DNA from: Rhodoferax sp.
GTDB taxonomy: Bacteria > Pseudomonadota > Gammaproteobacteria > Burkholderiales > Burkholderiaceae_C
Length of the DNA stretch: 64,000 nucleotides
Direction of reading: 5' to 3'
Assembly: GCF_030653815.1 (NCBI RefSeq)
Contig: NZ_JAURYQ010000017.1
Coordinates: forward strand, 17,370 to 81,369
Both the position numbers and the translations under genes were made by a program. Below the pieces are notes generated by a model, which ran no database searches, was not told the origin of the DNA, and saw only the letters and a list, made by a program, of their open reading frames with translations. Positions within the stretch are counted from its first letter, which is position 1. Each line of letters opens with the position of its first letter. Shown piece by piece: positions 48,802 through 63,761 of this stretch.

Positions 48802-49560
48802 TCAGCGCGGCGCCAGCCGGATCGCGCCGTCGAGCCGGATCACCTCGCCATTGAGCATGTCGTTCTCAAAAATATGCACCGTCAGCTTGGCGTAGTCCTG
48901 CGGCGTGCCCAGGCGCGACGGAAACGGCACGTTGGCCGCCAGCGCGTCCTGCACTTCCTGGGGAAAGCTGAACAGCATCGGGGTGCCAAAAATACCGGGG
49001 GCAATGGTCATGTTGCGAATGCCGTTGCGCGCCAAGTCGCGGGCAATGGGCAGCGTCATGCCGACGATGCCACCCTTGGATGCACTGTAGGCGGCCTGGC
49101 CGATCTGGCCGTCAAAAGCCGCCACCGAGGCGGTGGAGATCAGCACACCGCGCTCGCCCGTGGCCTCGGGCGCATTTCGGCTCATGGCGTCCGCGCACAG
49201 GCGGATCATGTTGAAGCTGCCGACCAGGTTGACGCTGATACATTTGCTGAACAGTGCCAGGGCGTGCGGGCCGGTCTTGCCCACGGTTTTCTCGGCCGGT
49301 GCAATGCCGGCGCAGTTCACCAGGCCCATCAATTTGCCCAAGCCAGTGGCGCAGGCCACCACGGCTTGCGCGTCAGATTCGCTGCTGACGTCGCATTTGA
49401 CAAACGCGCCGCCAATCTCCCTGGCCACGGCTTCCCCTTTGTCGGCCTGCATGTCGGCAATCACCACGGTACCGCCCTTGCTGGCGAGCATGCGGGCCGT
49501 GCCTTCGCCCAGACCCGAGGCGCCACCGGTGACGACGAATACTTTGCCTGCAATTTCCAT
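48802..49560 (-). CDS. Short-chain 3-hydroxyacyl-CoA dehydrogenase (HSD10-like SDR)
   Basis: [44 protein letters not shown]. Confidence 0.92.
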
Positions 49561-49695
49561 GGTGAACTCCAAAAAGTGATTGACGTGAACGTAAACGTCA
49601 ATTATGGCGCAAGCGCCCACTGTGAATTTTCGCTCCCGGGGCCTCGGATCGGCGCAATATTGCGGCTATACTCTCGTTCTCTTTTAGAGACCCTT

Positions 49696-49772
49696 AGGCG
49701 CGTAGCTCAGCTGGTTAGAGCACCACCTTGACATGGTGGGGGTCGTTGGTTCGAGTCCAATCGCGCCTACCA
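49696..49772 (+). tRNA. tRNA-Val(GAC)
   Basis: aggcgcgtagctcagctggttagagc, ccacc-ttGACat-ggtgg, ggttcgagtcc, cgcctacca. Confidence 0.96.
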
Positions 49773-49785
49773 AATTTGGTAGATA

Positions 49786-49824
49786 AATCAAGCACTTAGC
49801 GGCAACGTCAAGTGCTTTTTTTGT
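49786..49824. terminator. Terminator hairpin between convergent tRNAs, with an IHF consensus box
   Basis: aagcactta..aagtgctt plus T run; nearly identical to 720-757. Confidence 0.75.
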
Positions 49825-49892
49825 GGGCGTTTGCAAGCTATGTCTCATGGCGCGAGGGCTACGAGGCGGTGATCGGGGAGATTTGGGGGGAG

Positions 49893-49966
49893 TGGAGCGG
49901 GTGATGGGAATCGAACCCACGCTATTTGCTTGGGAAGCAAAAGTTCTACCATTGAACTACACCCGC
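49893..49966 (-). tRNA. tRNA-Gly(CCC)
   Basis: The minus strand reads gcgggtgtagttcaatggtagaac, tttgc-ttCCCaa-gcaaa, ggttcgattccc, cccgctcca. Confidence 0.95.
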
Positions 49967-49972
49967 GTTTTG

Positions 49973-50130
49973 TAACTGCTTGATTCTTCTATAAGTTTTC
50001 AGATAAGTGATTGATTTTCAACGTTTTTTAAACTTTCGTTGAAAATTTTATCACCACATCAAACCACATTAAACCGCATTCACTTATGATCTAGGCGTAG
50101 GTTTTGGCGTAGGTTTTTGGAACTTACGCC
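49973..50130. promoter_or_regulatory. att-like region: two IHF boxes and putative integrase arm-type sites
   Basis: taactgcttgatt (49973-49985) and taagtgattgatt (50004-50016) are reverse IHF consensus; tandem ggcgtaggtttt at 50094-50117 plus inverted aacttacgcc at 50121-50130; ~10-bp accacat repeats at about 50052-50080. Confidence 0.65.
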
Positions 50131-50178
50131 GCCTGGGAAATCCCCCCGACGACTTGATCACATGGAGATTGTAGTTCG

Positions 50179-51456
50179 ATGTATTTTGATGCCCGCGCCG
50201 CAAAGCTGCTGCCACCCGGAGAACATATGGTTATCGACGGCTGTCCTGGGCTGCGTCTAGTGGCTACGCAGACCGGCAAGACCTGGACCTACCGATACAA
50301 GGATGCCGCCAATCGAATGAAGCAGGTGCGCATCGGTCAGTGGCCGGTGATGCCGGCGCACGTAGCAGCTACGGACTGGCAAGCGTTGCGCGACCAGCGC
50401 GAGGCTGGCGTCGACCCGGCTGCACAGCGCAAGGCCCAGCGCCAGGCTGTCAAGGTCGAAGCGCCCGCGGTCTACACCGTGCGTAAGCTGTTGCAGGATT
50501 TCAAGGACGGGCATTTGCGCCAGAGTCGCAAGCCGGCAGGATTTGACGCAGCCGCAAACATGTTCGATCGCATCCTCGAGGACAAACCCGGCTTTGCCGA
50601 CAAACCCGCTGATGAGGTTGCGCGCGCCGATGCGTTCGAGGTTCTGGAAAGCCGAAAAGCTACGCCAACGATGGCGCAAAAGCTACGCTCGTTATTCGGT
50701 TCGGCCTGGGACTATGCGCTCGATGCCGGCAAGCTCGATGGTGATGCGACCAACTGGTGGCGCCTGGTGCAGCGCGGCCGGATCAAAAGCAAGGGCAAGG
50801 TGATTGGGGGCAAGCATCAGGGCCAGACGCGGCGCGTGCTGCACCCGGATGAAGTTTCGCAACTGCTGTCCTGGATTCCCAACATGCACGCCACCGGGCG
50901 CGATCTGGTGCTGATGCACTTATGGACGGCCACACGCGGCGCCGAAATTTTGTCCATGCAGCGCGACCACATTACGCAGACTGACGAGCAGTGGTGGTGG
51001 ACGGTGCCCAAGTCGCTTACCAAGAACGCCAACGTTCCGCAGGCAGTCGATTTACGCGTCCCATTGTTCGGCCAAGCACTGGCCGTGGTGCAGCGCAGGA
51101 TGGCGTCCATTGGGCCGTCCGGCCTGATGTGGGAGGATGCCAAGGGCAAGGCATATAGCCAGCATGATTTTTCGACCTACATCTACAACCTGCAGCCTTA
51201 CAGCCCCAAGGTGACAGGGCGCCAGAGCATCAGCGGGCTGGTGCTACCAGTAACGCACTGGACGCCACACAATCTGCGACGCACGGCCAGCACCATGCTA
51301 TCGAGTCTCGGATGCGTCAAGGAATACCGTGAGGCGATCCTGGGTCACGTTCAGCCGGGCGTTGAGGGCATATACAACGCCTACAGCTACGACGCTGAGC
51401 GTATTGAATGGCTCAAAAAACTGTCAGACCGTATGCAAAGCCTGATGCCAAAGTGA
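50179..51456 (+). CDS. int: Tyrosine recombinase/integrase with N-terminal arm-binding domain (P4-like)
   Basis: GLRL----GKTWTYRYK...RQVRIGQWP arm domain; catalytic R (TRGAE), HNLRR, LGH and Y (GIYNAY) intact. Confidence 0.95.
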   Translation: MYFDARAAKLLPPGEHMVIDGCPGLRLVATQTGKTWTYRYKDAANRMKQVRIGQWPVMPAHVAATDWQALRDQREAGVDPAAQRKAQRQAVKVEAPAVYTVRKLLQDFKDGHLRQSRKPAGFDAAANMFDRILEDKPGFADKPADEVARADAFEVLESRKATPTMAQKLRSLFGSAWDYALDAGKLDGDATNWWRLVQRGRIKSKGKVIGGKHQGQTRRVLHPDEVSQLLSWIPNMHATGRDLVLMHLWTATRGAEILSMQRDHITQTDEQWWWTVPKSLTKNANVPQAVDLRVPLFGQALAVVQRRMASIGPSGLMWEDAKGKAYSQHDFSTYIYNLQPYSPKVTGRQSISGLVLPVTHWTPHNLRRTASTMLSSLGCVKEYREAILGHVQPGVEGIYNAYSYDAERIEWLKKLSDRMQSLMPK

Positions 51457-51711
51457 TCAAGTCGGCTTGCCAGCGCGACCATGGCCGCTGTTGATGGGTG
51501 GCACAAAGTCCGACACTGGCCGAGCGCGCCCCCAGGCATCGAGCTCGTCCACCAACCAGGCGGTGCGCCCGGCAGAAATGCGCCGAGGTTTGGGCGCGTC
51601 ACCCTGGGCTACCAGCTTGTCTAGCATTGAATCGCTGATCGACAGATACATCGCCGCTTGCTCCCGCGCCAGGTACAGTGGCTTGATGGTAATGATGGCA
51701 TCCTTGGTCAT
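51457..51711 (-). CDS. AlpA-like excisionase / HTH regulator
   Basis: LAREQAAMYLSISDSMLDKLVAQGDAPKPRRISAGRTAWLVDELDAW; its stop abuts the int stop. Confidence 0.85.
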   Translation of the reverse strand: MTKDAIITIKPLYLAREQAAMYLSISDSMLDKLVAQGDAPKPRRISAGRTAWLVDELDAWGRARPVSDFVPPINSGHGRAGKPT

Positions 51712-52013
51712 TCTTCCATCTCGTCGGGTTCGTTGCTGTGGTCCATTTGCAAAAGTCAGATATCGTCAGGAGCCACAAACTTTAGCCATAGCAATGAGTT
51801 GATCTTGCGCGACAGGCTGTGCGGGCATTCACGGCGTTCCGAGTGCAACAGTTGTCATGTGTAAGCGGCGTGGGCCGTTATTGAGCGATATGGTGAGCTT
51901 GTTTGTTCGGAAAAACATGATTTACTCCAGCTGGACAGATGACGCCAGCATGTTTGGTAGTTGCTTGATACCGCTGGTGTGCAAGTGGGGCTAATGCGCT
52001 AACGCCTTTCAAA

Positions 52014-52433
52014 ATTCAACTCATTGGGGATGCCGTGCGACAACCCCAGCCGTGGGGCTAACCCCTGGACGACGCTCAAACGGACTGCCAAAACAAAGTC
52101 GCTCCGCTTTGTTCGCCTTGTCAGTCCGTTTCAGCCCAGCAGAAAGGTTCAGTCTCGTGTCCGAATGGTCACGCAAGTTTTGCAATCTTGGTCAATTTGA
52201 AAAAATTCTTTGCGAATTGCCCGAAACCCAGCCAAGCTTGCAAGGCACCCGGTTTGCCTAATGCCACCCCGACAACGATCGTTGTCGCAACATCCGAAAG
52301 GATGATTCAACTCATTGGGGATGTCATTCGACAACCCCAGCCGTGAGGCTAACCCCTGGGCGACGCTCAAACGGACTGTCAAAACAAAGTCGCTCCGCTT
52401 TGTTTGCCTTGTCAGTCCGTTTCAGCCCAACAG
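52014..52433. repeat. Two 129-bp direct repeats (52014-52142 and 52305-52433), each with a long hairpin
   Basis: 8 mismatches in 129 nt, offset 291 bp; aaacggactg...aacaaag-loop-ctttgtt...cagtccgttt stem. Confidence 0.92.
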
Positions 52434-52627
52434 CCAAACTCACCACAGGCGCGCGCGTCCATACTTGCGACGCACCCGTATTGGCTATCCGCCGTCGTGG
52501 CGGATAGTCGATTGGAGATGCAAATGAAAAGAATGTCCGGCGTGGTACTGTCAATCAGCCTGTCTACCGTCGTCGTGGCGACACGGCGCGCACAACGCGG
52601 TGAACTGTCGCGTGGTCTTTTTTGATC
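52434..52627. other. Candidate oriT region
   Basis: Non-coding stretch directly upstream of mobC-relaxase; perfect 9-bp IR ctatccgcc/ggcggatag (52485-52507); catacttgc (52460-52468) loosely resembles the MOB-P nic motif YATCYTG/Y. Confidence 0.45.
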
Positions 52628-52972
52628 ATGCCGCGTTCAACGTTTTTGAAACTCAGGGTTTCGCCCGATGAAGCAGACCGCTTCAACGCGCGTGCAGCAG
52701 CGCTGGGCGTCAGTGTGTCGCAGATGATCCGCGACACCACCTTGCATGGCGCAGTTTATGTCACCGTTGACAGAGCTCAGGCTGGCTACGAATTTCGTCG
52801 TCTGGGTGCCATGCTCAAGCACCTGTACCCGGCCAGAGATATCCGCTGGACGGCAGAAGACCGAAAAAAATGGTGGGCATTGATCCATGAGCTGCGTGAG
52901 CGCGCTGACACGCTGGAAGCAACCGCCTCAGGTGGCAAGGACAGGGCAGCCGGAATGGTTCATGCTGGCTAA
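52628..52972 (+). CDS. Relaxosome accessory protein (MobC/TraJ-like ribbon-helix-helix)
   Basis: LKLRVSPDE..RFNARAAALGVSVSQMIR RHH; EFRRLGAMLK; overlaps the relaxase start. Confidence 0.8.
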   Translation: MPRSTFLKLRVSPDEADRFNARAAALGVSVSQMIRDTTLHGAVYVTVDRAQAGYEFRRLGAMLKHLYPARDIRWTAEDRKKWWALIHELRERADTLEATASGGKDRAAGMVHAG

Positions 52973-54866
52973 GGTCATCATGCTGAAGAAGTCCTGGAAA
53001 ACGGTGGCCAGCGCAGCAAACTATGTCGTTGACGACCTCAAAAAGGCACCAGCACAACCAGAGCCCGACTACTACGGGCCAGAGGACGGCGCCGACTACC
53101 TTGCGCGCGATGGTGTGCTGGAAGCTGCATCCTTCAACATGGAGGGCCTCAACCCCACTGACCCGGATGATCGCAGGCAAATCATCAAGTGGATGGACAG
53201 CACAGCGCGGGCCTGGGCGGCAAGATCAAGAGCGCATCCCAAAACCAATCCGTTTTATCACGTAGTCCTTTCATGGAAGGCTGGCGAGCAGCCGACCGTT
53301 GACCAGGCCGCGGTTGCAGCCGCCAAGGCGCTCAAAGCGGTTGGCATGGCCGACAACCAGGCATTTTTTGCGATCCACCGCGACAAAGATCACCACCACC
53401 ACATTCACATCATTGCCAACCGTGTCCACCCTGAGCATTTGGTACTGACCGGGCCACCACGCTATGACTTCCTTGTGCTGGACAAAACCTGTCGGGAGAT
53501 CGAACTTGAACAGGGCTGGCAGCATGACAACGGCCCCCACGTGGTCATTGACGGTCAAATCAAGCGGCTGACGCATGCGCTGCGCCGCCAGCTTGGACTT
53601 GAAACCGACAAGTCACTTGCACCGCATGCACCTGCCGTGAAGGCGCGCATGGGGGAAGTCAAGGCAGGACTGCCCTCACTGGCCGGCTGGCTCAACAACA
53701 AGGTTGCACCAGAGCTGGTTGCAACGCAGAACTGGCAGGAGTTCCATCGCGCATGCGTCGCCAGAGGCCTGCGTGTGGTGAAAGTCAAATCCGGCTTGAT
53801 TTTCGAGACCGACATGCTCGACAAGGCAACGCAAACCAAAGCGTCAGCCGTTCACTATGCACTGAGTCTGGGGCGCTTGCAAAAGCGCTTTGGTGAGTAC
53901 CAGCCGCCCAACATTCCCATAGGGCAGACCTCATCGACCAACCGGTCGATTGACGGAGCCACTTACAACGATTACGTTGCCCGTGTTGCCTGTGGTACTG
54001 ACCCGGACTCGCAGGAATATCCCGGGTGCACCGGGCGAGGCGAACAGCGCGATCAAGCCAGAATTGATCGTGCCATTGCACGCACAGCACTCTTTGAGCA
54101 ATACAAGTCAGAAAAATACACGGCTAAAGACAACCGCAAGGCCGCAAGGCTGGAGCTGCGAGAGCTTTACAAAGCAGAAAAATCTGACCTGCTCCAACAG
54201 CTTGCGGCTTCTAAAACCGGGACCCTGACCCATCTGCAAAATCAATATGGGAGCCAGGTGGCGAGACTCCTGTGGGCAGCACAGCGCACGGCGGCGATGG
54301 AAGACTTGGCAGACCGGCAAAAGCGTGAACGCCTGGCGCTTACACATGCCAACGCGATGGAATGGTTGCCGTGGCTGGAGCGGCAGGCGGCGCTAGGCAA
54401 CGAGGCGGCAATCTCCGCACTTCGCGGGCTGCGCTATCGGTCCCAGCGAGACAAAACCAAACAAAAGGCAGGCATCGAGGGCGAAGACCTCGGCCATACC
54501 GCCCCCGCAGCAAGCCGGGAAAACAGCATCAGGGGCACGGCACGACCCGACGACTTCGACATCCGCACAGCCCGGCTCAGGATCACTCCAGAGCACTGCA
54601 TTGAATACCTTGACACCCGTGGCACGGTACGACTGACCGACAGTGGACCGCGGATCGATGTGACGCAAGAGAACGACCCACAAGCCATGCGCGCAGGGCT
54701 GTTACTGGCCTCTCAAAAATTTGGTGGTGAAGTATTCGTCACAGGGTCAGTGACGTTTCGGGAGTTGGCTGCCAAAGAAGCTCTGCAAATGGGTATCAAA
54801 GTGAAAAACCCGGAATTGGCATTTTTAGCCGCTGAGAAGACAAGGGATAAAGAATTGGAATTATGA
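52962..54866 (+). CDS. MOB-P (TraI-like) relaxase with C-terminal LPD7-like domain
   Basis: Motif I ANYV/DYL, motif II FYHVVLSW--GEQP, motif III IHRDKDHHHHIHIIANRV; C-terminal LTDSGPRI...ASQKFGGEVFVTGS--F. Confidence 0.9.
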   Translation: MLAKVIMLKKSWKTVASAANYVVDDLKKAPAQPEPDYYGPEDGADYLARDGVLEAASFNMEGLNPTDPDDRRQIIKWMDSTARAWAARSRAHPKTNPFYHVVLSWKAGEQPTVDQAAVAAAKALKAVGMADNQAFFAIHRDKDHHHHIHIIANRVHPEHLVLTGPPRYDFLVLDKTCREIELEQGWQHDNGPHVVIDGQIKRLTHALRRQLGLETDKSLAPHAPAVKARMGEVKAGLPSLAGWLNNKVAPELVATQNWQEFHRACVARGLRVVKVKSGLIFETDMLDKATQTKASAVHYALSLGRLQKRFGEYQPPNIPIGQTSSTNRSIDGATYNDYVARVACGTDPDSQEYPGCTGRGEQRDQARIDRAIARTALFEQYKSEKYTAKDNRKAARLELRELYKAEKSDLLQQLAASKTGTLTHLQNQYGSQVARLLWAAQRTAAMEDLADRQKRERLALTHANAMEWLPWLERQAALGNEAAISALRGLRYRSQRDKTKQKAGIEGEDLGHTAPAASRENSIRGTARPDDFDIRTARLRITPEHCIEYLDTRGTVRLTDSGPRIDVTQENDPQAMRAGLLLASQKFGGEVFVTGSVTFRELAAKEALQMGIKVKNPELAFLAAEKTRDKELEL

Positions 54867-54998
54867 GTTTTAAAAACAACATCGTATTAATTTACCTATT
54901 AACTTTATAGCTACTCTGAGTTAAAATAGATAATGACTTCATGCTGCTAAAAATAATAGTGAATCATATTTATTTTCATCTGATTAGATTACTTTCCC

Positions 54999-55295
54999 AT
55001 GGCCAACAATCGTAGAACTACAGCAAGACGCTGGATCAATAGCGCTGTATATCGGTACGGGCAAGTGGTCTTTTACACCAAATGGCTCTTTTGCCTTGCG
55101 ATCACTTGCCTGGTCTGGGGAGGCGCGCTCTGGTTTGGGTCGCTAGCCTGGGATCAAAAGCAAGGTGCCATCCTGGCTCTGATGGGATTTGGTGCATGGT
55201 TGACAGTTTGCAGATATGTTTTTCCAGTATTTTGGTTTATATCCATCGAGGTCATCAAACGGTTCTTTAGATGTATTAATTATCGCTTCTTGTAA
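54999..55295 (+). CDS. Small hypothetical membrane protein (2-3 hydrophobic segments)
   Basis: 98-aa ORF in AT-rich DNA with hydrophobic, Trp/Phe-rich segments; no family recognised. Confidence 0.45.
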   Translation: MANNRRTTARRWINSAVYRYGQVVFYTKWLFCLAITCLVWGGALWFGSLAWDQKQGAILALMGFGAWLTVCRYVFPVFWFISIEVIKRFFRCINYRFL

Positions 55296-55382
55296 AATTT
55301 TTTCCATGACCTAGGAAGTTTGAATGACGGCAATGATTAATATTTATTTTTCCATTCAAACAGATTATTTTGTTATTTTAAA

Positions 55383-55565
55383 ATGATTACTTTAACGGTG
55401 AAAATGAATGAAACACTGGTAATCGCGCTGGCCCAATTTGTCAAGCGGGTTGGATTCTCAGAAATTCGCAGCAATGCAGTAGACGACTTTGAGGCGTACC
55501 TCATTCGTGATGCCCTCGACAGAGTTCGCATAGGGCTGGCGAACGCTGGCTTTTCTCCTCGGTGA
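55383..55565 (+). CDS. Small conserved hypothetical plasmid/ICE protein
   Basis: ALAQFVKRVGFSEIRSNAVDDFEAY--RDAL..AGFSPR resembles a recurrent mobile-element family (from recall, not searched); GTGA-coupled to the next gene. Confidence 0.65.
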   Translation: MITLTVKMNETLVIALAQFVKRVGFSEIRSNAVDDFEAYLIRDALDRVRIGLANAGFSPR

Positions 55566-56137
55566 AGCCCACCAGCAGCATGGTGGTGACCATGGTCTTC
55601 CTGATGACGGCCACTTTTTCCCGGGCAGAAACAGAGGCTTGGAGAGATCACGTTGTTGCAGCAGTTCGACCTGGAGCCGTTGTGGCGCGGCGCGGCCTTG
55701 ACAATGATCCCATCACGCAAGCGGTACTGTTCGGTCAGGGTGGCGGCAAATGGAGTCATGTGGGCATCGCCGTGCAGTTGATACCAGATGGCCAAATCTA
55801 CATTGAAAGTGCCATGCCAGGCTTTGGCACCAAGCTCGAAAAACCGGAGGTATTTTTCAGTGCCGAGCAGGCCTCAGAGGGGAAAGTGTTGTTGATGCCG
55901 GTGGACAAAGTGGATGCGGTTCAAAACGCTGCCAAATCGCTTTTGGGTCGTCCCTTTGATGACCAGTTAGCGCTGGATGACAACGGCAAAAAGCTCTATT
56001 GCACTGAGCTGGTGGCCATGGCACTGCAAAGTGCTGGGGTGATCAAAGATTTGCCAATGCGATCTGTTCCATTTTTGCCTCAAAAGGTCATTACCCCCGA
56101 CGATCTGATTGCCACAGTTCGCGCAACAGTGCTTTAG
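55562..56137 (+). CDS. YiiX/YebB-like permuted NlpC/P60 (papain-like) hydrolase
   Basis: His before Cys order: WSHVGI ... LLGRPFD ... LYCTELV; ITPDDL; N-terminal signal-like segment. Confidence 0.85.
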   Translation: MKPTSSMVVTMVFLMTATFSRAETEAWRDHVVAAVRPGAVVARRGLDNDPITQAVLFGQGGGKWSHVGIAVQLIPDGQIYIESAMPGFGTKLEKPEVFFSAEQASEGKVLLMPVDKVDAVQNAAKSLLGRPFDDQLALDDNGKKLYCTELVAMALQSAGVIKDLPMRSVPFLPQKVITPDDLIATVRATVL

Positions 56138-56443
56138 GGGCGAGGTTCGTACGTAATCTGACCAATGAAGCCGCTCTAACCGGCACCAAAACGCCACCAG
56201 TTCCGACCTGATATAGCCACCTGATGTGGCTATAAACTGTTGGGACGAGCACCGGCTAGGCAGCGTTTCCCGACAGCCACGAATGCCAGCTTCCGGGTGA
56301 GCCGATTTCATGAATTTGGTGGCTGGTCAACGGCTGTTCGCAGACTTTGGCAAGGTGCCCGTTATTGACGTTGCTACCAATGTGAACCGGCCACGGAAGC
56401 CCGCCATCCTTGGCGTGAATTGCAATCGCAATACAATACAGCG

Positions 56444-56725
56444 ATGAAAACTGCAACAATCCCCCCCATTCGCGTAGCACCTGAGTTCAGGATCGAAGTT
56501 GAAGGTGTCCTTGAGCAGGGTGAATCGCTTTCACAATTCGTCGAAAGCGCCGTACGCCAAACGGTTTTGAAGCGCAAGCATCAAGCTGAATTCCTGCATC
56601 GGGGCATCACAGCCATCGAGGAAACAAAGCGAGTAGGTGGTGGCATTGCTGCGGAGGTTGTAGTTGCCAAGCTTGAAGCCAAACTGGCGGCTGCGCGTCG
56701 AACCCAGTCTCAGCACCATCGATGA
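56444..56725 (+). CDS. YlcI/YnfO-like ribbon-helix-helix antitoxin
   Basis: MKTATIPPIRV-PEFR-EVEGVL--GESLSQFVESAVR; ATGA-coupled to the toxin; palindrome ttgcaatcgcaa upstream. Confidence 0.8.
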   Translation: MKTATIPPIRVAPEFRIEVEGVLEQGESLSQFVESAVRQTVLKRKHQAEFLHRGITAIEETKRVGGGIAAEVVVAKLEAKLAAARRTQSQHHR

Positions 56726-57039
56726 TCTATGCCGTTCAATTCAGTGCCGCTGCCGACGAAGACTTGGAGAGGCTTTTTGATTTCATTCTTCAGCGTGAAC
56801 TGGACAGTGAGGCTGGTGATCTTGACATTCCCGAGAGGGCGCTACAAGCCATCAAAGAGGGCATAGGCTTTTTGAGGTCATCTCCATTTGCCTGTCGAAA
56901 GGTTGGGGAGAGTCCTTTTATCCGAGAGCTAGTGATCACTTTTGGACGCTCAGGCTATGTGGCACTTTATGAAATTGTCGATGACAGAACCGTCATCATC
57001 GGTGCGATTCGTCACCAACGGGAAGATGATTACCACTGA
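56722..57039 (+). CDS. RelE/ParE-family toxin
   Basis: YAVQFSAAADEDLERLF..., RELVITFGRSGYVALYEI...IRHQRE. Confidence 0.88.
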   Translation: MIYAVQFSAAADEDLERLFDFILQRELDSEAGDLDIPERALQAIKEGIGFLRSSPFACRKVGESPFIRELVITFGRSGYVALYEIVDDRTVIIGAIRHQREDDYH

Positions 57040-57330
57040 ATCAACCAATCGTTGCTGATGTGGCTGCCATCGAAATCAACACCTGCTGACCTTCAGAGGC
57101 AGAGATGAACGGCCGGTTTGGATGGGTCATTTCGGCAAGTTGGCTGGCCTCTTCGGGTCTGGAACTGACCTAGGTTTCATCCAGTGTGCGCACTCACAAG
57201 TTGCGGTTTTGAATTAGTATGACTGGCAACGTTGACACCGGAATCAGTGGTTTCGTTGGATCGTAATGGCTGGCTTTTTTGGTCGGATTACGCAATTCGC
57301 CTGGCGCGACACACGCGCACAGCAAACCGA

Positions 57331-57852
57331 TCAATCTTCGACAAATCCGAAAGAGGATTTGCGTGGCCTGTTGTGGTGGTCCCTTGGAAATTTCACAGGC
57401 CCAAAATACCGCGAATCAAAGCTGTTCGGATGCTCACCGGCGGTCCAGATTCCCCCTTGCTTGAGCGTAAAACATCCGCGCATATGGGGAAGTGCCTGTC
57501 CCTTGGTATCCAGGTCAAGCGGCCTTGAATTCGGCACTGGCTGTCCGTTAATTTCAACCCCGTCATCCGTTGCCGTCACCAAGTCACCAGCAACCCCAAC
57601 CACTCTTTTGATCAAGGGCATGCTGCCATCAGGGCACGAGCCGTGACCGATGGAGGGATGTGGAATCGGAGAGCAAAAGCTGGTCAGGCTGCCTTTTTCT
57701 CCATGACCCACTTTGTAGACCGTGCCAGGCATCGAGCCAGTGACATTCAAAACGATGCCAGATGATTTTGCCGTCACGGCAAAAATCGCTACCACCGACA
57801 ACACCAGCAGCGTCACATAGAGAGGGATGAGGTTCAGTTGTTTTGCTTGCAT
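57331..57852 (-). CDS. traF: Conjugative TraF-type S26 peptidase
   Basis: NVTGSMP (Ser), LIKRVVG (Lys), SFDSRYFGPV; directly after traG. Confidence 0.85.
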   Translation of the reverse strand: MQAKQLNLIPLYVTLLVLSVVAIFAVTAKSSGIVLNVTGSMPGTVYKVGHGEKGSLTSFCSPIPHPSIGHGSCPDGSMPLIKRVVGVAGDLVTATDDGVEINGQPVPNSRPLDLDTKGQALPHMRGCFTLKQGGIWTAGEHPNSFDSRYFGPVKFPRDHHNRPRKSSFGFVED

Positions 57853-57871
57853 GTTGCAAGAGTTTGGTCAT

Positions 57872-59857
57872 TCAGCTTCGAGCGGCTTTCTCCCGCGCGT
57901 CAATCACCGAATTCCCGATCAGTTTGGCGGCCCCCAGCATCTGTCTTTTCACCAGCGCTGGATCCTTGTAATAGATGATTTTCTGGCAGTAGATCGGCGC
58001 GTGACCAGCCACAAACACGAGCTCATCAGTGGGTGGCAGGCGCATGGTTTCATCCGGTGTCAATAAGGGCCGCTGGCTCAATTGTTCATTGGTGCTGACG
58101 TTGTTCAGCACCACGCTCAGGCGTGATCCCGAGAAATTTCTTTGGGTGTGGGCCACCGTAGAGGCGCCACTCATTTTGGAGAGCAGTTCTGCCGTTTCGA
58201 TTTTGTTGGGCGCGAAGGCAATCCGGATGTGGCAGTTCGACATGATCGACTCGTCCTTTGAGTAGGCTTTTGTCAGCTGGGACAAATCTTGTGTGATCAA
58301 CAGCGCCTTGAGCCCGTAGCCAGCGATAAATGCCAGGGCCTCCTCAAAAATTTCCAGTTTGCCGAGCGCCGGGAATTCGTCAATCAGCAGCAACATCTTG
58401 TGGGGGAAGCGCGACTTCGAAGCGCCGGTCTCGTCGAACTCCATTTTTTCTGTGAGGCGACGAACCACCTGGTTGATGATAAGCCTCAAAAGTGGCTTCA
58501 GGCGGTCTTTGTCGGAGGGCGGCACGACCAGGTACAAGCTGGTTCTGCGCTGCATCAGCGATTCGATGGTGAAGTCCGACGCACTGGTGTTGGCAGCCAC
58601 AATCGGATCCCGGTACAGCGACAGGAACGACAAGGCCGTCGACAGCACGCCAGAGGCCTCGTTGGATGCCTTGTTCAAGAACGATTGAGCCGCCTGCGAT
58701 GCAGTTTTCCAGGCGACCAGATCAACATCGGTACAGTGCCCGGCACTGATCTTTTCGTAGCCGGTGTCCCGGATGTATTCCATCACCGCCCGAAAGCCCT
58801 CTGCAATTTTGGCTTTTTCGTCAGCATCGGTATCTTTGTCAGCGGCCAATCGCTCAGCCAGTTCACGCACGGGGCCACCGTCCGACAAAATCGCCTGCAC
58901 GGTTGACAAATTCCGTTGCGAATCCTCCAGCTCATCGGACACCAGCACAAAAATGATGACACCGGTCATCAGGTCAAAGCCGGTTTTGGCCCAATGGTCT
59001 TGCAGGCCTTTGCCGTCAGGGTCAACAATCATGGTCGAGACGTTCTGCACGTCCTTGACCAGGTTGTCGTCAAGGCGAATTTCAGACAGGGGATTGAAGC
59101 GGGCCGACTCGATTTCTGATGGCGAAAACCGCAGGCAACGTTGTTTCAACACCTTCTCACGAAAGCCGGACGTCAGCGCCCAGTTTTCTCCCTTGACGTC
59201 ATGCACCAAAACAGATTCTGACCAGGATAAAAGTGTCGGTATCACGATACCAACACCTTTACCCGAACGCGTTGGAGCAAAGACCAGAATGTGTTCCGGC
59301 CCGCCATGGCGCAAATAGATAGTTTTGGCTGTTGCGCCAAACGGGTTGAAACCGACAGTTTTGACTGGAATCTCAACAGCCCCCAGCATCACACCGCCGA
59401 CGTTTTCCCGTGTCGGCAAGATCCCTGCAGCTTCGATTTCGTCTGCCACCGCCCAATGCGCTGAACCGTGCAGGTCATTGCGTTCGTCTTTCAGCTTGCG
59501 GGTTCGCCGAAACACGTAGGCCACCGGAAAAACAATGGCGGTCATGGCGCCTCCAGCCAGCATCAGTTGCGCTGTCTTGATGACGGCCATGACATCCGGT
59601 GATGAGTCTGGCCGGAAATACCGAAATATCCAGATCAGGATGTCCCACGGCCAGTAAATCCGCGTCTGGCCAAGAATCGCGGCGGGTGATCCGAGTGTCG
59701 GGTGAAAACGAAATTGCCAGGCCGTATATTGCGTCACCAGCACGAAGGTCAGCGCAGTGACAACTCCGAATATCAGGAAGGCAATCCATACAAAGTGAGT
59801 AATGTCCCCTTGGGTGCGGGGGATAACGTAGAGCTGCTGTCGCTGCGATTGGGACAT
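57872..59857 (-). CDS. traG: Type IV coupling protein TraG/VirD4 (IncP-like)
   Basis: N-terminal TMs, HGSAHWA, Walker A APTRSGKG, DVKGENW, LIDEFPALG, QDLSQL, RPLLTPDE. Confidence 0.95.
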   Translation of the reverse strand: MSQSQRQQLYVIPRTQGDITHFVWIAFLIFGVVTALTFVLVTQYTAWQFRFHPTLGSPAAILGQTRIYWPWDILIWIFRYFRPDSSPDVMAVIKTAQLMLAGGAMTAIVFPVAYVFRRTRKLKDERNDLHGSAHWAVADEIEAAGILPTRENVGGVMLGAVEIPVKTVGFNPFGATAKTIYLRHGGPEHILVFAPTRSGKGVGIVIPTLLSWSESVLVHDVKGENWALTSGFREKVLKQRCLRFSPSEIESARFNPLSEIRLDDNLVKDVQNVSTMIVDPDGKGLQDHWAKTGFDLMTGVIIFVLVSDELEDSQRNLSTVQAILSDGGPVRELAERLAADKDTDADEKAKIAEGFRAVMEYIRDTGYEKISAGHCTDVDLVAWKTASQAAQSFLNKASNEASGVLSTALSFLSLYRDPIVAANTSASDFTIESLMQRRTSLYLVVPPSDKDRLKPLLRLIINQVVRRLTEKMEFDETGASKSRFPHKMLLLIDEFPALGKLEIFEEALAFIAGYGLKALLITQDLSQLTKAYSKDESIMSNCHIRIAFAPNKIETAELLSKMSGASTVAHTQRNFSGSRLSVVLNNVSTNEQLSQRPLLTPDETMRLPPTDELVFVAGHAPIYCQKIIYYKDPALVKRQMLGAAKLIGNSVIDAREKAARS

Positions 59858-59873
59858 GCAGAGCCTTCAATTT

Positions 59874-61028
59874 CTAAATTTCCAGTTCAGTTTCAGGTTT
59901 AGCAACTTTTTTTGCCCTGGCTTTCGAGGGCTTCAGGGTCTCCTCTTTCACGGGTTCTACCTTAACCTCATCCGCCACCAGGCCAACGTCTTTTTCGACC
60001 TCAACGCCCAGGCTCTTCTCAATCAAATAGTCCACCGCTTTTGACGCGTCCTTGGCCGCTGCAAAGACGGCGTGCTTGTCGCCTTTGAGTGCTTCCAGCC
60101 ATGACCCGATGTAAGCGGCATGATTTTTGTCGTCAAACTGTACGCCGGTTTCGGCACTGGCGAAAGCGCTGCACAACTCCGCCACCAATTCTTCACGGGC
60201 ATACTCACTCGTGCCAAAGCCGTTGGCGAGAGGCCGGTTGAGCCGGTTTTCGCCGCCGGTCGCGTGGCCGAGTTCATGCAATAGCGTGCCGGAGTAGGCT
60301 TCAGGGCTTTCAAACTGATCAGGATTCGGCATTTGAACGGCATCGCGTGCAGGCGAGTAAAAAGCCCGATCACCGCCGTGTTCAAGCGTCAAGCCGTCGA
60401 GCTTCATACCGCTGGCAATTTTTTCTACTGCAGCGATCTTTTCCACAGCAGGGCGGTCTTTTGTTGTGGCGATAGGTTCAAGGGTCAAGCCGTTGCATTG
60501 CTCGACATTGAAGGCATGGCTGGTTTTTTCGAACAGCAAGCTCAAGGTCCGCTCAGCCTGCCGCCAACTGTATTTGGTCCCGTCAGATTCCACCACCAAT
60601 TGACGCGTGTCCACCTGCAGCCCACTGGCAAGTTTGACCGTTTGCGCATGCTTCTCAGGCGCTTCAGCAAGCGTTACCCGAGCGCCATTGTGGGTGATGT
60701 CAACGTCCCGGCGGCGATGAAAAGGCAACTCGTCCCAGTATTCGATGGGCGTTGACTTTTCGCCTTGGGTGACACCACCGCCCAGGCTGGCTGCCTGCTT
60801 GTAGGTCAGCCAGCGTGGATCGGCGTAGCCTTTGTCCATTCCCTGCATCATCAGCATGAGCCGGTTACCGCCGCTGTAAATACGGCCAGAAACCGCATTG
60901 CGGGGCAGTCCGGCAGCAACACCACCTTCATTGCTCCAACCCTTGCGCCAGGGCATGACACCCGACTCCAGGGAGGCGACGATGCGATCCGTGATTTGCT
61001 CACGCAGGTCTTTTTTGGGCTCAGTCAT
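59874..61028 (-). CDS. ardC: ArdC-family ssDNA-binding antirestriction protein with zincin-like metallopeptidase domain
   Basis: ITDRIVASLESGVMPW-KGW, PRNAVSGRIYSGGN, WLTYKQA, GEKS, FNVEQ, AFYSP--D-VQMP, HELGH, YAREELVAE. Confidence 0.9.
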   Translation of the reverse strand: MTEPKKDLREQITDRIVASLESGVMPWRKGWSNEGGVAAGLPRNAVSGRIYSGGNRLMLMMQGMDKGYADPRWLTYKQAASLGGGVTQGEKSTPIEYWDELPFHRRRDVDITHNGARVTLAEAPEKHAQTVKLASGLQVDTRQLVVESDGTKYSWRQAERTLSLLFEKTSHAFNVEQCNGLTLEPIATTKDRPAVEKIAAVEKIASGMKLDGLTLEHGGDRAFYSPARDAVQMPNPDQFESPEAYSGTLLHELGHATGGENRLNRPLANGFGTSEYAREELVAELCSAFASAETGVQFDDKNHAAYIGSWLEALKGDKHAVFAAAKDASKAVDYLIEKSLGVEVEKDVGLVADEVKVEPVKEETLKPSKARAKKVAKPETELEI

Positions 61029-61188
61029 GATGCACCTCGACAAAATCCAGGGCGTCAACATCGTCATGTTCAGGGCCGGAGAGCTCAATGCCGAGCTTGT
61101 CGGCATCGCGAACCGAATGCACTTGGGCGTCGGCTGGTATGCCCAGTTCAGCCATTGTTTGCGGAGAGATGGGTGTCATTGCTTGCAT
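61021..61188 (-). CDS. 55-aa acidic hypothetical protein
   Basis: ATG at 61188 with an AGGA RBS; overlaps the ardC start by 8 nt; 12 Asp/Glu versus 2 Lys/Arg. Confidence 0.5.
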   Translation of the reverse strand: MQAMTPISPQTMAELGIPADAQVHSVRDADKLGIELSGPEHDDVDALDFVEVHHD

Positions 61189-61231
61189 GGTTTTTCCTAT
61201 AAAAATGCCCGATATGGTCGGGCGGTGTCGA

Positions 61232-62641
61232 TCAACGTTCAATATATTCCTCCAAGTCAAGTTGAGGCGACACTGGCATTTTTTTCCACATCTGAGAGGC
61301 TTTTTTATTTTCGAGCGCTTGTTCTCTTCTCTCTTCGGCCACTTCAGGTGCGGCCTTTTCCCGCTCCGCCAAAAAAGCCTCCCGCACGTAGTCGCCAGAC
61401 GTTTTGAAATACTGTGCAATGTTCGCCTTCTGCGATGGCTCCAGCGCTTCGCGTTCCCTGATGACGCGGTCATCGCGCACCATGACCACATCCGTTCCAA
61501 GCTGCGTGAGCTTGCCGTCCGTGTCCAAAATGCCTTTCTCGCGTAGCAGATCGACAGACCCGGGGTCAACGCCACCGTTTTGCTGTTCAAGGTCAACCTT
61601 GGCTATTTGGTGAATTGCCTGATAGCCCAAATCTTTGATACTGGCGTTGGCCGCAAGCATGCGTTCATCGGGCATGGAAATCTTGCCGTCACCCAGCAGG
61701 TCAATATCTGCCACGGGGCTTTTTGTGAGGATGTCAATCGTTCTTTGATCGGCGCGAAGAACGGACTTGCCCACAGGCGCAATCTTCAGGTTCTTGACCG
61801 GATCACCCGTGATGCCCGCTTCAACACTTGGGATATTTGCGCGTTCAATGCCTTGGGCGACCTGTTTACCTCTCATCCAGGCCCTTAACACCTCAGGCTC
61901 TGTGTTTTGCAATGGATAGCCCAATTTGCCAGAGATCTCCGCTGCACGGACCTTGAAGGCCGTGTCACCGGTCAACAGCAGGCCTTTGTCGATGTCAAAC
62001 TTTTTGGCGGCGATCTTGAGTGCCGCTTCGACATCGCGATCATCGGTTTTGCGCACATCCAGGCGGTCACCGACATCACGCACGGCCACCGTCAAGCCGC
62101 GCGTGTATTCCATGACGCCGTCCTTACCTTCACGCGCCTGCAAATCGGCCAGCACAATGTTGGGTGCTGTTTGTTGGGTGAAGCCTTCCAGGCCGGAATC
62201 CGGCGTCTTTTCTGCTTCTTCAATCAGACTGTCAAAAATGGGGTCATCGGGCTGTTCAAGTTTTGACTCTTTCAGGAAATCAAGCCAGCTTTGCGGCTTG
62301 ACCAGCGTGCCATCGAGTTCGCGAGCGGCCCTGTCTTTTTCAGCGTAATAGCCTTCAGTGAGTTTGGCCAGCTCCATGGCCACCGACGCGGAGATCGATT
62401 GATCAGACGCACCCAGCCCCTTCAGTCTGGTTTGCAGATCGCCACGGGTTGCTTCAATACTGGACTGCAATTGCAGCCATTTTTCGCGGTATTTCTGTTC
62501 GTGCTGATCAATCCCGCCATTGCGAATTTCTCGCGCAGGGGCAGTTTTGGCCTCAAAGGCATCCAGCAGGGCAATTCGCTTTTGTTGTTCACCAGTCAAA
62601 GTTTCCATAGGTGGCCTTTCAGGTACAAACTCATTGACCAC
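61232..62641 (-). CDS. LPD7-domain protein (start 62641 or 62608)
   Basis: VRDVGDRLDV...DVEAALKIAAKKF..LLLTGDTAFK-RAAE matches the LPD7 pattern also seen in the relaxase tail. Confidence 0.7.
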   Translation of the reverse strand: MVNEFVPERPPMETLTGEQQKRIALLDAFEAKTAPAREIRNGGIDQHEQKYREKWLQLQSSIEATRGDLQTRLKGLGASDQSISASVAMELAKLTEGYYAEKDRAARELDGTLVKPQSWLDFLKESKLEQPDDPIFDSLIEEAEKTPDSGLEGFTQQTAPNIVLADLQAREGKDGVMEYTRGLTVAVRDVGDRLDVRKTDDRDVEAALKIAAKKFDIDKGLLLTGDTAFKVRAAEISGKLGYPLQNTEPEVLRAWMRGKQVAQGIERANIPSVEAGITGDPVKNLKIAPVGKSVLRADQRTIDILTKSPVADIDLLGDGKISMPDERMLAANASIKDLGYQAIHQIAKVDLEQQNGGVDPGSVDLLREKGILDTDGKLTQLGTDVVMVRDDRVIREREALEPSQKANIAQYFKTSGDYVREAFLAEREKAAPEVAEERREQALENKKASQMWKKMPVSPQLDLEEYIER

Positions 62642-63248: not shown

Positions 63249-63761
63249 GGGACGGCATTCCTTTCAGGAAGGCCAGTTCAGCATCAAAACTTTGGGGGAA
63301 AGGTGGCAAACCCCCGCTGGACTGGCTTTACCCATACCGCGAAGGCGCAAATGCAATGCCTGGACGACTTTCCGCTTCCATGGGAAACGTCCCACAATTC
63401 GAAGACTTTCGGTACCCGGTTAACCAAGTCGCTTATGACTGCCAAGACCTGCTGTGCCGTCCGAAAGATATCGAACTGCCGGTCCAAGACGAGAGCGAGA
63501 TGCTGTTACATAACTTATTGGTCGGGTTGCTCCAACGCAGTCAATCGGGCGTGCGCCGAAAAGTTGGCAATGTGCCGACGATTTCAGTGCCCGGACTCGA
63601 CCATTTACGGGAATTCACCGGTAACTGCTTTGGCAGTGTCAAGACTTTTGGGTAAACAAGTTCAAGAGTGACCAACGATCAAATTTTGCTCAAAACAATT
63701 GGTCTCAAATTAGACTGAGCCACTACATGCGGCATTGGACCGCCTCAACACGTAACCTGCA

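Follow-up and report, generated by a model that had tools for sequence, protein, structure and literature searches.

Analysis of a 64,000-nucleotide stretch of DNA from Rhodoferax sp. (here called the window) revealed a 129-nt non-coding unit, present in two copies beside the candidate origin of transfer (oriT) of an integrative mobilizable element. The minus strand is the better-supported folded strand of this unit, and the unit goes with the nikA-relaxase cassette, not with int/xis. We tentatively interpret it as a signal for single-strand initiation of the ssi/sso kind, forming a strand-specific part of the DNA-transfer cassette together with oriT, NikA and the MOBP relaxase. The alternative, a structured RNA, comes close to this strand-conversion role in likelihood, and the two readings are weighed below.

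Repeat search of the window returned a single repeat family, with copies at positions 52014-52142 (copy A, distal from oriT) and 52305-52433 (copy B, proximal to oriT). The copies are spaced 291 nt from start to start and are 94% identical (about 8 mismatches), which confirms the duplication claimed in a preliminary description of this DNA (a 129-bp module, 291 bp apart, with 8 mismatches). Both lie on the minus strand, where they score 171 bits (copy A) and 181 bits (copy B) with the covariance model R1, and a 24-nt core pattern of the unit has two sites only in the 64-kb window as compared to 0.00 expected from shuffles. Copy B, which is the copy kept in almost all related loci, ends about 195 nt upstream of nikA. 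The gggg/cccc hairpins and the long stem (AAACGGACTG.../...CAGTCCGTTT) described previously were found in both copies. The spacer between them (52143-52304, minus strand) contains, as also described, the 18-bp palindrome cgacaacgatcgttgtcg at 52270-52287 and the catcc-GAAA-ggatg hairpin at 52291-52304. Neither is a conserved feature: the palindrome is poorly kept among the loci, which have in common only its core AACGATCG, and the GAAA hairpin is confined to one flank type. The right-hand part of the spacer (about 105 nt) is homologous to the conserved flank located to the left of single-copy units. A match to the sigma-54 -24/-12 pattern in the spacer (aGGCACccggtTTGCc, 52244-52258) was dropped, since it is not conserved in other loci.

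The unit itself shows no sign of coding content. Single-base insertions occur within it in about 18 of 49 aligned homologous copies, and the approximately 650 bp reported to lack a credible open reading frame (ORF) contain only overlapping ORFs of at most 77 aa. The claimed extent of the ORF-free region needs correction, however, since a conserved short ORF with a GGAG Shine-Dalgarno sequence (52518-52625, plus strand, 35 aa) separates the oriT core from nikA, leaving a truly non-coding stretch of approximately 51712-52517. The stop of this ORF overlaps the nikA start, and the ORF contains a terminator-like hairpin (52595-52623). Among the loci its position is conserved and its sequence is variable, with an in-frame 39-nt deletion in locus L013.

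The host of the unit is an integrative mobilizable element of Rhodoferax/Comamonadaceae, approximately 13.7 kb in length, which encodes a relaxase and a TraG coupling protein and carries no mating-pore genes. The candidate oriT core (52463-52512) is composed of the box ACTTGCGAC-N6-GTATTGG and an inverted repeat with 14-nt arms (52480-52493 and 52499-52512). The short ORF is followed by genes for a NikA-like ribbon-helix-helix relaxosome accessory protein (52628-52972, plus strand; PF21983, E = 1e-11), with homologues of 114 aa, and for a TraI/MobA(P)-family relaxase (52887-54866 as the longest ORF, plus strand; PF03432, PF22863 and PF18821). The relaxase scores 339 bits against NF041893 (cut-off 250), and its homologues are called at 634 aa. 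To the left of the unit, an 84-aa helix-turn-helix protein (xis; 51457-51711, minus strand) is weakly excisionase-like by its match to the PHROG "excisionase and transcriptional regulator" families (E = 1e-5) and has no Pfam match. It is convergent with the gene for a P4-type tyrosine integrase with an arm-binding domain (int; 50179-51456, plus strand; PF13356 and PF00589), the start of which is 1.8 kb off, at the far end. The genes at the far end of the element are all on the minus strand and include the operon 205aa-LPD7-ArdC-TraG-TraF. A search for the att core by direct repeats between the element ends gave a 10-nt match only, at chance level.

About 30 nt separate the conserved oriT box from the start of the unit, which lies opposite to the relaxase operon. 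The unit adjoins the candidate oriT, as had been claimed, and does so on the side predicted to exit the donor first. By the order box, inverted repeat, relaxase operon, as in RP4, R64 and RSF1010, the minus strand is predicted to be the transferred strand. The best match to a MOBP nick core, CTATCCGCC, falls within the inverted repeat and is therefore strand-ambiguous; the leading-strand placement of the unit would fit a minus-strand nick near GTCGCAAGT. The nick position, the nick polarity and any priming activity of the unit are inferences.

To assess the distribution of the unit, related loci were collected via NikA homologues, and presence of the unit was assessable in 69. It is present in 64 of these, beside the oriT-NikA-TraI(MOBP) cassette, and all 89 instances (loci and window) have the same orientation with respect to nikA, displaced copies included. 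The int-xis pair of the window is shared by only 6 of 70 loci, and the unit is found by at least four different tRNA attachment sites with int-xis either present or absent. The side away from nikA varies, being occupied by int-xis, by a small unrelated ORF or, in many loci, by a gene-less tRNA/att end. In loci of the L049 type, the unit is intact and in the same orientation even though a HipA/HipB-like cassette, a toxin-antitoxin operon on the minus strand, puts 2.1 kb between it and oriT; in the L027 type, a second copy is located 2.2 kb from oriT. Copy number ranges from one to two through tandem duplication, with a second copy in about 24 loci and the remnant of a third copy seen. Unit identity across loci is 82-98%, with NikA proteins that are 75-99% identical. 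A sister clade has kept the same candidate oriT core and lacks the unit, which indicates that the unit is dispensable; the core is also conserved in the module-less relatives L017, L062 and L064. A covariance-model search detected no divergent copies in these relatives or elsewhere in the window, and BLASTN of the intergenic region against plasmid and phage collections gave no match. Within positions 49000-56000, cmscan against Rfam (E <= 1) returned only tRNAs and chance hits.

The fold of the unit was assessed in an alignment of 49 homologous copies, with the structure statistics drawn from the 47 distinct variants. Read along the minus strand, copy A consists of a long imperfect hairpin (H3), a 4-bp hairpin (H2), an 8-bp G4/C4 hairpin (H1) and the tail AATGAGTTGAA, which is invariant and unpaired. 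H3 (52074-52135, with its counterpart in copy B at 52365-52426), located by its inverted repeats, has 22 pairs that are 97.4% paired over the 47 variants, with changes on both sides at four of them. Its apex, GCGGAGC (52102-52108 and 52393-52399), corresponds to the GCGNAGC mini-hairpin motif, which is kept in 39 of the 47 variants (N is A in 21, G in 11, C in 5 and T in 2). In copy A, H1 (52026-52047) directly adjoins H2 (52048-52059), and both hardly vary; H1 is 99.5% paired, with six of its eight pairs the same throughout. The consensus structure of 38 pairs is 97.9% paired. Collection of homologues and a covariation test had been proposed as a check on this region, and the changes observed preserve the structure, with none of 500 shuffles reaching its covariation score. 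The strong structure claimed earlier is borne out also by folding, since each copy folds better than its dinucleotide shuffles both as RNA (z from -2.8 to -4.9) and as DNA (z from -4.1 to -5.5).

The two strands differ in this respect. Consensus folding by RNAalifold with RNA parameters gave -41.4 kcal/mol for the minus strand versus -14.9 kcal/mol for the plus strand, and with DNA parameters -16.4 versus -5.9 kcal/mol; the minus strand was the more stable in 47 of 47 variants with RNA parameters and in 44 of 47 with DNA parameters. Over the same 38 pairs, 212 alignment cells are mismatched on the plus strand versus 38 on the minus strand, the 174 extra cells being A.C on the plus strand against G.U on the minus strand. 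G.U is abundant in the minus-strand pairing, and individual positions switch between G.U, A-U and G-C. The register of the inner stem, which holds three G.T pairs in the consensus, works on the minus strand only, and variants that break the alternative register strengthen this one. In those helices that are Watson-Crick on both strands, nine G.U pair types occur on the minus strand versus three on the plus strand (p = 0.15), and the shuffle-corrected z-scores of the two strands are similar. The strand asymmetry of the unit is thus moderate only.

A single-strand priming signal is the function that fits these observations best, although our preference for it is guarded. Second-strand priming had been among the early suggestions for this region; that part stands, whereas the proposed tie to xis/int gives way to one with the nikA-relaxase cassette. 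Under this reading, the minus strand would be single-stranded in the recipient, or in the donor during relaxase-driven rolling-circle replication, and the hairpins of the unit would stay free of SSB and could recruit a priming enzyme (host primase, primosome or RNA polymerase). Priming would then start the complementary-strand synthesis needed before the integrase can insert the element, and the second copy, a tandem duplicate, may give redundancy. An ssi/sso is expected to have extensive structure on one DNA strand and a fixed orientation to the nick or leading-strand origin; the unit folds preferentially on one strand and keeps one orientation with respect to nikA. Like the G4-type ssi, the RSF1010 ssiA and ssiB and the sso of rolling-circle plasmids and ICEBs1, it is a non-coding sequence of about 130 nt with several hairpins in one orientation, near the putative nick or origin of a strand processed by a relaxase or Rep protein; it likewise has a GCGNAGC-type mini-hairpin cap, is dispensable or redundant, and sometimes occurs in more than one copy. 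Mini-hairpins of the GCGNAGC class occur at the G4 complementary-strand origin, in RSF1010 ssiA and in the N4 hairpin promoters (PMC13037366). The sso1 of ICEBs1 has three stem-loops, is orientation-specific, and becomes necessary for stable acquisition only when a redundant region has been deleted as well (PMC4595007). The ssi signals in plasmid leading regions have been reviewed (PMC7690428), and Frpo/ssi elements are often multiple there (PMC11541004). On the other side, the inner-stem G.T pairs suit RNA better than DNA, and the region is represented in metatranscriptomes, which is not required of a purely DNA-level element. The unit has no recognizable RSB or CS-6 boxes, and no sequence similarity to known ssi, sso or Frpo was found in the plasmid and phage collections or in Rfam. 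To our knowledge, no ssi/sso has been described in a betaproteobacterial integrative mobilizable element.

The undescribed structured non-coding RNA also suggested at the outset is still a live rival, ranked just below priming; the unit has no Rfam match, and metatranscriptome contigs cover it. The unit would then be the conserved folded part of a minus-sense transcript, either a leader or a non-coding RNA, initiated next to oriT and extending leftward in the direction of the att end. Acting in cis, it could affect how transcription elongates or terminates, or how stable the RNA is, as a processive antiterminator like put, EAR or canT or as an attenuator, with xis as its target in the window and, after excision, the minus-strand 205aa-LPD7-ArdC-TraG-TraF operon across the circular joint. 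In locus L035, metatranscriptome contigs span positions ~3409/3435 to 3831/3833 in three runs, with none on nikA, and in the window type contig depth reaches 24-106 over the unit, compared with 2-17 over the genes flanking it; other runs show coverage extending leftward from the unit into the small minus-strand ORF. The abundance of G.U in the minus-strand pairing, with its exchange for A-U and G-C, also speaks for RNA, and a minus-sense RNA of the full 454 nt has a folding energy of -187.7 kcal/mol (z = -5.0). Since the far-end genes are all on the minus strand, a transcript running leftward would read them in the sense direction once the element is circular. In loci at tRNA-Ser, the unit and the att core are separated by a hairpin with an A-run on one side and a T-run on the other, which was judged by eye to be a bidirectional terminator. 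A precedent is canT of Tn916, a cis-acting antiterminator RNA of 350-450 nt at one end of an integrative element, which reads across the joint (PMC11658703). Like canT, put, EAR and conAn2, the unit is part of a structured non-coding region of a few hundred nucleotides near one end of an integrative element, facing the joint, with conjugation genes past the joint in the same sense.

Several observations weigh against the RNA interpretation. The coverage comes from Logan contigs, which carry no strand direction; where segments are most conserved, the depth adds up variants that co-occur, and carried-over DNA may contribute to it. The apparent RNA ends in the public runs, which are confounded by the repeat, strain SNPs and low depth, differ by element type (~3832 in L035 and ~52567 in the window type), and promoter scans of the window and L035 found no sigma-70-like promoter at either boundary. 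More generally, these scans found no promoters in the two sequences, and the terminator scans found only the short-ORF hairpin upstream of nikA and the ends of neighboring genes. In the window, a read-through transcript would pass antisense through int. The unit tracks the relaxase type and not any downstream gene, an RNA-RNA duplex search against seven genes of the element gave no base-pairing target in their 5' regions (z from -1.4 to +1.0), and the unit matches no Rfam family. Unlike canT, put, EAR and conAn2, it is homologous to none of these RNAs and its antitermination is only proposed, and the elements described here are Gram-negative, with a MOBP relaxase and, in some, a tandemly duplicated unit. 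A more specific form of this idea, which we regard as rather unlikely, is that proteobacterial integrative elements have a novel type of cis-acting RNA, with the unit as its core, that makes RNA polymerase resistant to termination. After excision, and not before, outward transcription from beside oriT would then get past the tRNA terminator, over the joint and into the ArdC-TraG-TraF operon, so that transfer-gene expression would be coupled to excision, as by canT in Tn916; the same sequence might also be a priming signal on the transferred strand.

It is somewhat less probable still that the unit is part of an extended oriT, serving as a duplex or cruciform platform for relaxosome accessory proteins (NikA, a TraK-like protein or the coupling protein). 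In RP4, a 180-bp TraK-bound region adjoins the nick, and the distance of ~30 nt to the oriT box, the very high conservation of primary sequence (loops included) and the linkage to relaxase type are all consistent with such a platform. However, the unit is intact when displaced by 2.1 kb in the L049 type, a second copy is placed 2.2 kb off in the L027 type, and relatives with the same oriT core do without it. Pairing with G.U on one strand only would also be unexpected of a duplex binding site. We consider it improbable that the unit acts on the plus strand, as a cis-regulatory 5' leader of the nikA-relaxase operon. RNA depth in the window type does drop stepwise from the unit to nikA to the relaxase, with one contig spanning all three, and the plus strand has GNRA-type loops (GUAA, GUGA and GAAA). 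The plus-strand consensus, however, lacks the long hairpin, reaching just the -14.9 kcal/mol and the 212 mismatched cells (38 on the minus strand) given above; the GAAA hairpin is not conserved, and in the L049 type a minus-strand toxin-antitoxin operon separates the unit from nikA.

The first idea for this region, that xis/int is transcribed from the entering strand at a single-stranded DNA promoter of the Frpo type, is very unlikely and was rejected. Like the Frpo of F and IncI1 leading regions, the unit is structured as single-stranded DNA, is often repeated, may prime the second strand and has a putative leading-region position. Frpo, however, is about 330 nt long, with a long stem that displays the -35 and -10 hexamers and faces the downstream genes, whereas the longest stem here, of about 24 pairs, is too short for both. 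The absence of convincing hexamers noted previously holds, with 0 sites in a promoter scan of both strands; TTGACA appears in one hairpin arm only where a variable mismatch position is A. The genes beside the unit also have the wrong polarity: xis and the small conserved ORF on the left share their sense with the strand that folds and is predicted to be transferred, which therefore cannot be the template for xis. Finally, the unit follows nikA-relaxase, is present in most loci without xis/int on that side, and has no similarity to plasmid Frpo regions.

That the unit is a selfish or neutral repeat (MITE or REP-like) and does nothing for the element is scarcely tenable: copy number is variable and deletions leave remnants, but the unit occurs at one position relative to oriT and nowhere else in the window or loci (a dispersed MITE/REP was discarded on finding only two adjacent copies in 64 kb), keeps 82-98% identity across loci in which NikA is 75-99% identical, and changes in ways that preserve its structure. 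Like an integron attC, it has an imperfect one-strand hairpin, about 60 nt long and mismatched at its center, with an AAAC...GTTT base; in contrast to attC, no gene cassettes lie between the hairpins, and this candidate was rejected because the sequence GCTCAAAC...GTTTCAGC does not match the RYYYAAC/GTTRRRY cores and the integrase is P4-type, not IntI. An analogy to the three stem-loops of ColE1 RNA I/RNA II was dropped, as the unit has no replication protein or origin context.

The interest of the unit lies in how Gram-negative integrative elements convert the incoming single strand to the duplex needed by the integrase. The one defined single-strand origin that we found for an integrative element is the sso1 of ICEBs1, which comes from a Gram-positive host; the authors of that work pointed out that sequence, structure and functional analysis would have to be combined to find more of them (PMC4595007). 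If the unit is instead an RNA, it would be a structured RNA that is missing from the catalogues and linked to the processing of DNA in conjugation. The unit is a well-delimited, conserved and easily testable candidate, for which about 49 natural variants, structure and covariance models, and natural deletion, duplication and displacement variants are at hand.

The repeated module consists of two direct copies of a 129-nt unit (52014-52142 and 52305-52433), which start 291 nt apart and are 94% identical. Three hairpins can form in each copy: one with GGGG...CCCC arms, another short one, and a long imperfect one (AAACGGACTG.../...CAGTCCGTTT). The predicted fold of each copy is more stable than that of dinucleotide shuffles, with z-scores of -2.8 to -4.9 for RNA and -4.1 to -5.5 for DNA. 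An 18-nt palindrome (52270-52287) and a catcc-GAAA-ggatg hairpin (52291-52304) are present as well. The preliminary description had placed all of these elements correctly, and its view of the unit as non-coding is upheld, since single-base insertions distinguish approximately 18 of the 49 aligned homologous copies and ORFs across the region reach 77 aa at most. The 24-nt core pattern of the unit has no further occurrence in the 64-kb window (0 expected by chance); a dispersed repeat was thus ruled out by the presence of only two adjacent copies in the window, and an attC site was ruled out on the aligned sequence. Searches for the unit in Rfam gave no match, and searches of plasmid and phage collections revealed no relatives. 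On the plus strand of the spacer, aGGCACccggtTTGCc (52244-52258) fits the -24/-12 spacing of a sigma-54 promoter; it is unconserved in the other loci and is probably a chance match.

By its gene content, the surrounding DNA is an integrative mobilizable element of ~13.7 kb (about 49970-63761) with its own relaxase and coupling protein, in which no mating-pore genes were found. A tRNA-Val gene (49696-49772, plus strand) and a tRNA-Gly gene (49893-49966, minus strand) are followed by a tyrosine integrase with an arm-binding domain (50179-51456, plus), an 84-aa helix-turn-helix protein that is weakly excisionase-like (51457-51711, minus), and the two units with their spacer (52014-52433, minus). 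The candidate oriT core, a conserved box (ACTTGCGAC-N6-GTATTGG) with a 14-nt inverted repeat (52463-52512), precedes a NikA-like ribbon-helix-helix protein (52628-52972, plus) and a TraI/MobA(P) relaxase (52887-54866, plus; NF041893, 339 bits). Further right, genes for a TraF-like S26 peptidase, a TraG coupling protein, and ArdC-like, LPD7 and 205-aa proteins all lie on the minus strand. The right end was placed between 63249 and ~63761 because host genes (EamA, phn operon) are found ~500 nt past the 205-aa protein in contigs sharing that protein. Between the oriT core and nikA, a 35-aa ORF (52518-52625, plus; MQMKRMSG...) with a GGAG Shine-Dalgarno sequence has a stop codon overlapping the nikA start (TGATCATG). 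Within this ORF lies a hairpin with a T-run (52595-52623) that resembles a terminator. Relatives have the ORF at the same place and with variable sequence, and locus L013 shows an in-frame 39-nt deletion; the ORF may serve nikA-traI as a leader peptide or an attenuator.

Through NikA homologues we reached 70 loci, 17 of them in Rhodoferax/Comamonadaceae genome bins and 53 in metagenomes. The unit was found in 64 of the 69 assessable loci, always in the same orientation relative to nikA. One copy ends ~195 nt upstream of nikA, and a second, present in ~24 loci, mostly lies 289-291 nt further out. The flank of ~105 nt outside each unit is conserved too; only the core of the palindrome (AACGATCG) is conserved among loci, and the GAAA hairpin is confined to one flank type. 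The five loci without the unit encode NikA proteins only 68-71% identical and keep the box and short inverted repeat, and a covariance model search of these five loci found no divergent copy. Many loci carry a tRNA gene (Ser-GGA, Ser-GCT, Val or Pro) on the int/xis side of the unit; in the tRNA-Ser loci, a gene-free stretch of ~350-380 nt separates it from the outermost unit. Int-xis can be present or absent at the left of identical NikA proteins. The preliminary description had connected the unit specifically to xis/int, and this connection did not survive: the int-xis pair of the window is common to only 6 loci, and gene order across the relatives indicates that the unit is linked to the nikA-relaxase cassette instead.

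The integration module itself appears, from these sequences, to be exchanged independently of the transfer module. One NikA protein, P0006, and its downstream genes are identical in loci L074 and L075/L076; two of the P0006 contigs have the int-xis pair at the left, and the third directly adjoins host genes and a tRNA-Ser-type end. Loci L049 (about 1420-1560), L069, L005, L009 and L002 carry three to four direct repeats (GTGTCCCCGTTTTGTCCCCG, or GTGTGCCCGTTTTGTGCCGG in another type) between the tRNA-Ser gene and the conserved flank; these repeats differ with the attachment site and resemble arm-type sites for integrase binding. In several element types, unit-less ones included, the minus-strand gene nearest to oriT on its left is a conserved small ORF (82-92 aa, MIGTQPVG...; leftward from 3336 in locus L035, and also in L008, L012, L017 and L064) with no match in Pfam, NCBIfam or PHROG.

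The distance between unit and oriT is not fixed. In the L049 type, a HipA/HipB-like pair lies between them and the unit is intact 2.1 kb away; in the L027 type, two unit copies are 2.2 kb apart. The L049 insertion (1918-3560, minus strand) encodes HipA-like (421 aa) and XRE/HipB-like (126 aa) proteins and recurs in L055 and probably also in L052 and L063. Its oriT-side junction carries a degenerate remnant of the 3' end of a unit (cagtctggTCAGCCC), and the tRNA-Ser loci retain a short remnant of a further copy (TTTCAGCCC) ~105 nt outside the outermost unit. These remnants indicate repeated tandem duplication and deletion of the unit.

The folding strand was assessed on alignments of 49 (plus strand) and 47 (minus strand) distinct copies. 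RNAalifold gave -41.4 kcal/mol for the minus strand with all three hairpins recovered, compared to -14.9 to -17.8 kcal/mol for the plus strand without the long hairpin; with DNA parameters, the consensus values were -16.4 and -5.9, respectively. RNA parameters made the minus strand the more stable one in 47/47 variants, and DNA parameters did so in 44/47. The 38-pair minus-strand structure is 97.9% paired, with 27 additional pair types and four pairs changed on both sides; its covariation score was reached by 0/500 shuffles, and slid controls paired at only 38-50%. The same 38 pairs contain 178 G.U cells on the minus strand versus 4 on the plus strand, a difference arising partly from the chosen, minus-only inner-stem register (CAAGGCGAA/UUUGUUUUG). 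This register is independently supported, since 12 variants disrupt the strand-symmetric alternative AACAAAG/CTTTGTT, and in most of these, G-to-A changes and a one-base insertion reinforce the minus-only pairing. When only helices with Watson-Crick pairing on both strands are counted, there are 9 (minus) versus 3 (plus) G.U pair types (p = 0.15), or 15 versus 3 as cells, which are not independent, and shuffle-corrected z-scores are alike on both strands. Overall, the minus strand is favoured as the folded strand but not proven.

Conservation across all relatives, unit-less loci included, is limited to the box, the short inverted repeat after it, and then nikA. In RP4, R64 and RSF1010, the nick is separated from the relaxase operon by the inverted repeat, and the nicked strand exits 5' to 3' in the direction opposite to the operon. 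By analogy, the nick is predicted with fair likelihood on the minus strand, in or near GTCGCAAGT, and the transferred strand would reach the proximal copy after ~30 nt. A sequence within the inverted repeat, CTATCCGCC, matches the MOBP nick core best (RP4, CTATCCTGC); its location there leaves the strand ambiguous.

The best-fitting, still tentative reading of these data is that the unit acts as an ssi/sso-like priming signal on the predicted transferred strand. Such a signal fits the strand-specific fold, strongly conserved including its loops and 3' tail (AATGAGT), the fixed orientation to oriT and the linkage to relaxase type, as well as the tolerance of kilobase displacement, the presence of one or two copies, the dispensability in a sister clade and a mini-hairpin. 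The latter, GCGNAGC, caps the long hairpin, read on the minus strand, in 39 of 47 variants, with six fixed positions conserved and N free (A 21, G 11, C 5, T 2). This motif is unusually stable in DNA and occurs in the G4 complementary-strand origin (also St-1 and alpha3), RSF1010 ssiA and the N4 virion-RNA-polymerase hairpin promoters (2026 review, PMC13037366). The bare heptamer is common in this GC-rich DNA (~1 per 1.7 kb per strand); the weight of the motif comes from its apex position and conservation pattern, which would point to DNA. Close functional precedents are the ssi/Frpo elements of plasmid leading regions, often multiple (PMC7690428, PMC11541004), and ICEBs1 sso1, which has three stem-loops, is orientation-specific, and becomes important for stable acquisition only if a redundant region is missing as well (PMC4595007).

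The main rival, nearly as likely, is that the unit acts as a structured RNA of minus sense, either a leader or a non-coding transcript, which would explain the G.U-rich stem and the RNA coverage. Unstranded Logan contigs from groundwater, aquifer and river metatranscriptomes share the sequence, and the unit is probably transcribed. For the window type, contig depth in two aquifer runs was 24 and 57-106 over the units and 2-17 over nikA and the relaxase, and 2-15 toward xis in run X27, which is covered left of the units; these depths sum co-occurring variants in the most conserved segments. A single contig spans everything in another run. For the single-copy L035 type (unit 3680-3808), three river runs covered about 3409/3435 to 3831/3833, with no coverage on oriT or nikA; in other runs, the small minus-strand ORF at the left is covered too. 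Contigs break at the repeat and at strain SNPs, the coverage of either type may include DNA carry-over, and the apparent right-hand RNA boundary varies by type (3832 in L035, ~52567 in the window type); no sigma-70-like promoter was found at either boundary. At L035 3707, inside the GGGG...CCCC hairpin (H1), contigs of five river/freshwater metatranscriptomes diverge and continue with GGTATGACCCGGACACATAGTTAACAC..., which is absent from all 70 loci; these contigs represent either a variant locus or a unit carrying an insertion. A minus-sense RNA over the full 454 nt would be highly structured, with a predicted fold of -187.7 kcal/mol (z = -5.0). A leftward transcript that continued past the circular joint would run in sense into the 205aa-LPD7-ArdC-TraG-TraF operon, and in the tRNA-Ser loci it would first meet a hairpin between an A-run and a T-run that by eye looks like a bidirectional terminator; the Tn916 canT antiterminator RNA is used in this layout (PMC11658703). 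However, a read-through transcript in this window would be antisense to int, the contigs are unstranded, and no base-pairing target was found for the unit RNA among the 5' regions of seven element genes. The RNA and priming readings are not mutually exclusive, since a leader RNA and the transferred strand would share one sequence.

A plus-sense leader of nikA is unlikely, given that the consensus plus-strand fold lacks the long hairpin and the G.U cells fall almost entirely on the minus strand. A duplex platform for the relaxosome is likewise unlikely, as the unit tolerates displacement and its pairing is strand-asymmetric. A Frpo-type promoter for xis/int was rejected: there are no hexamers, the stem has only ~24 pairs, xis runs in the sense of the folded strand, and xis/int is missing from this place in most relatives.

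The general idea of the preliminary description, a folded single strand next to oriT, and its location are thus retained. While the function of the unit is one that we infer, the unit itself is real, conserved and previously uncatalogued, and forms part of the transfer cassette in a family of small integrative mobilizable elements.
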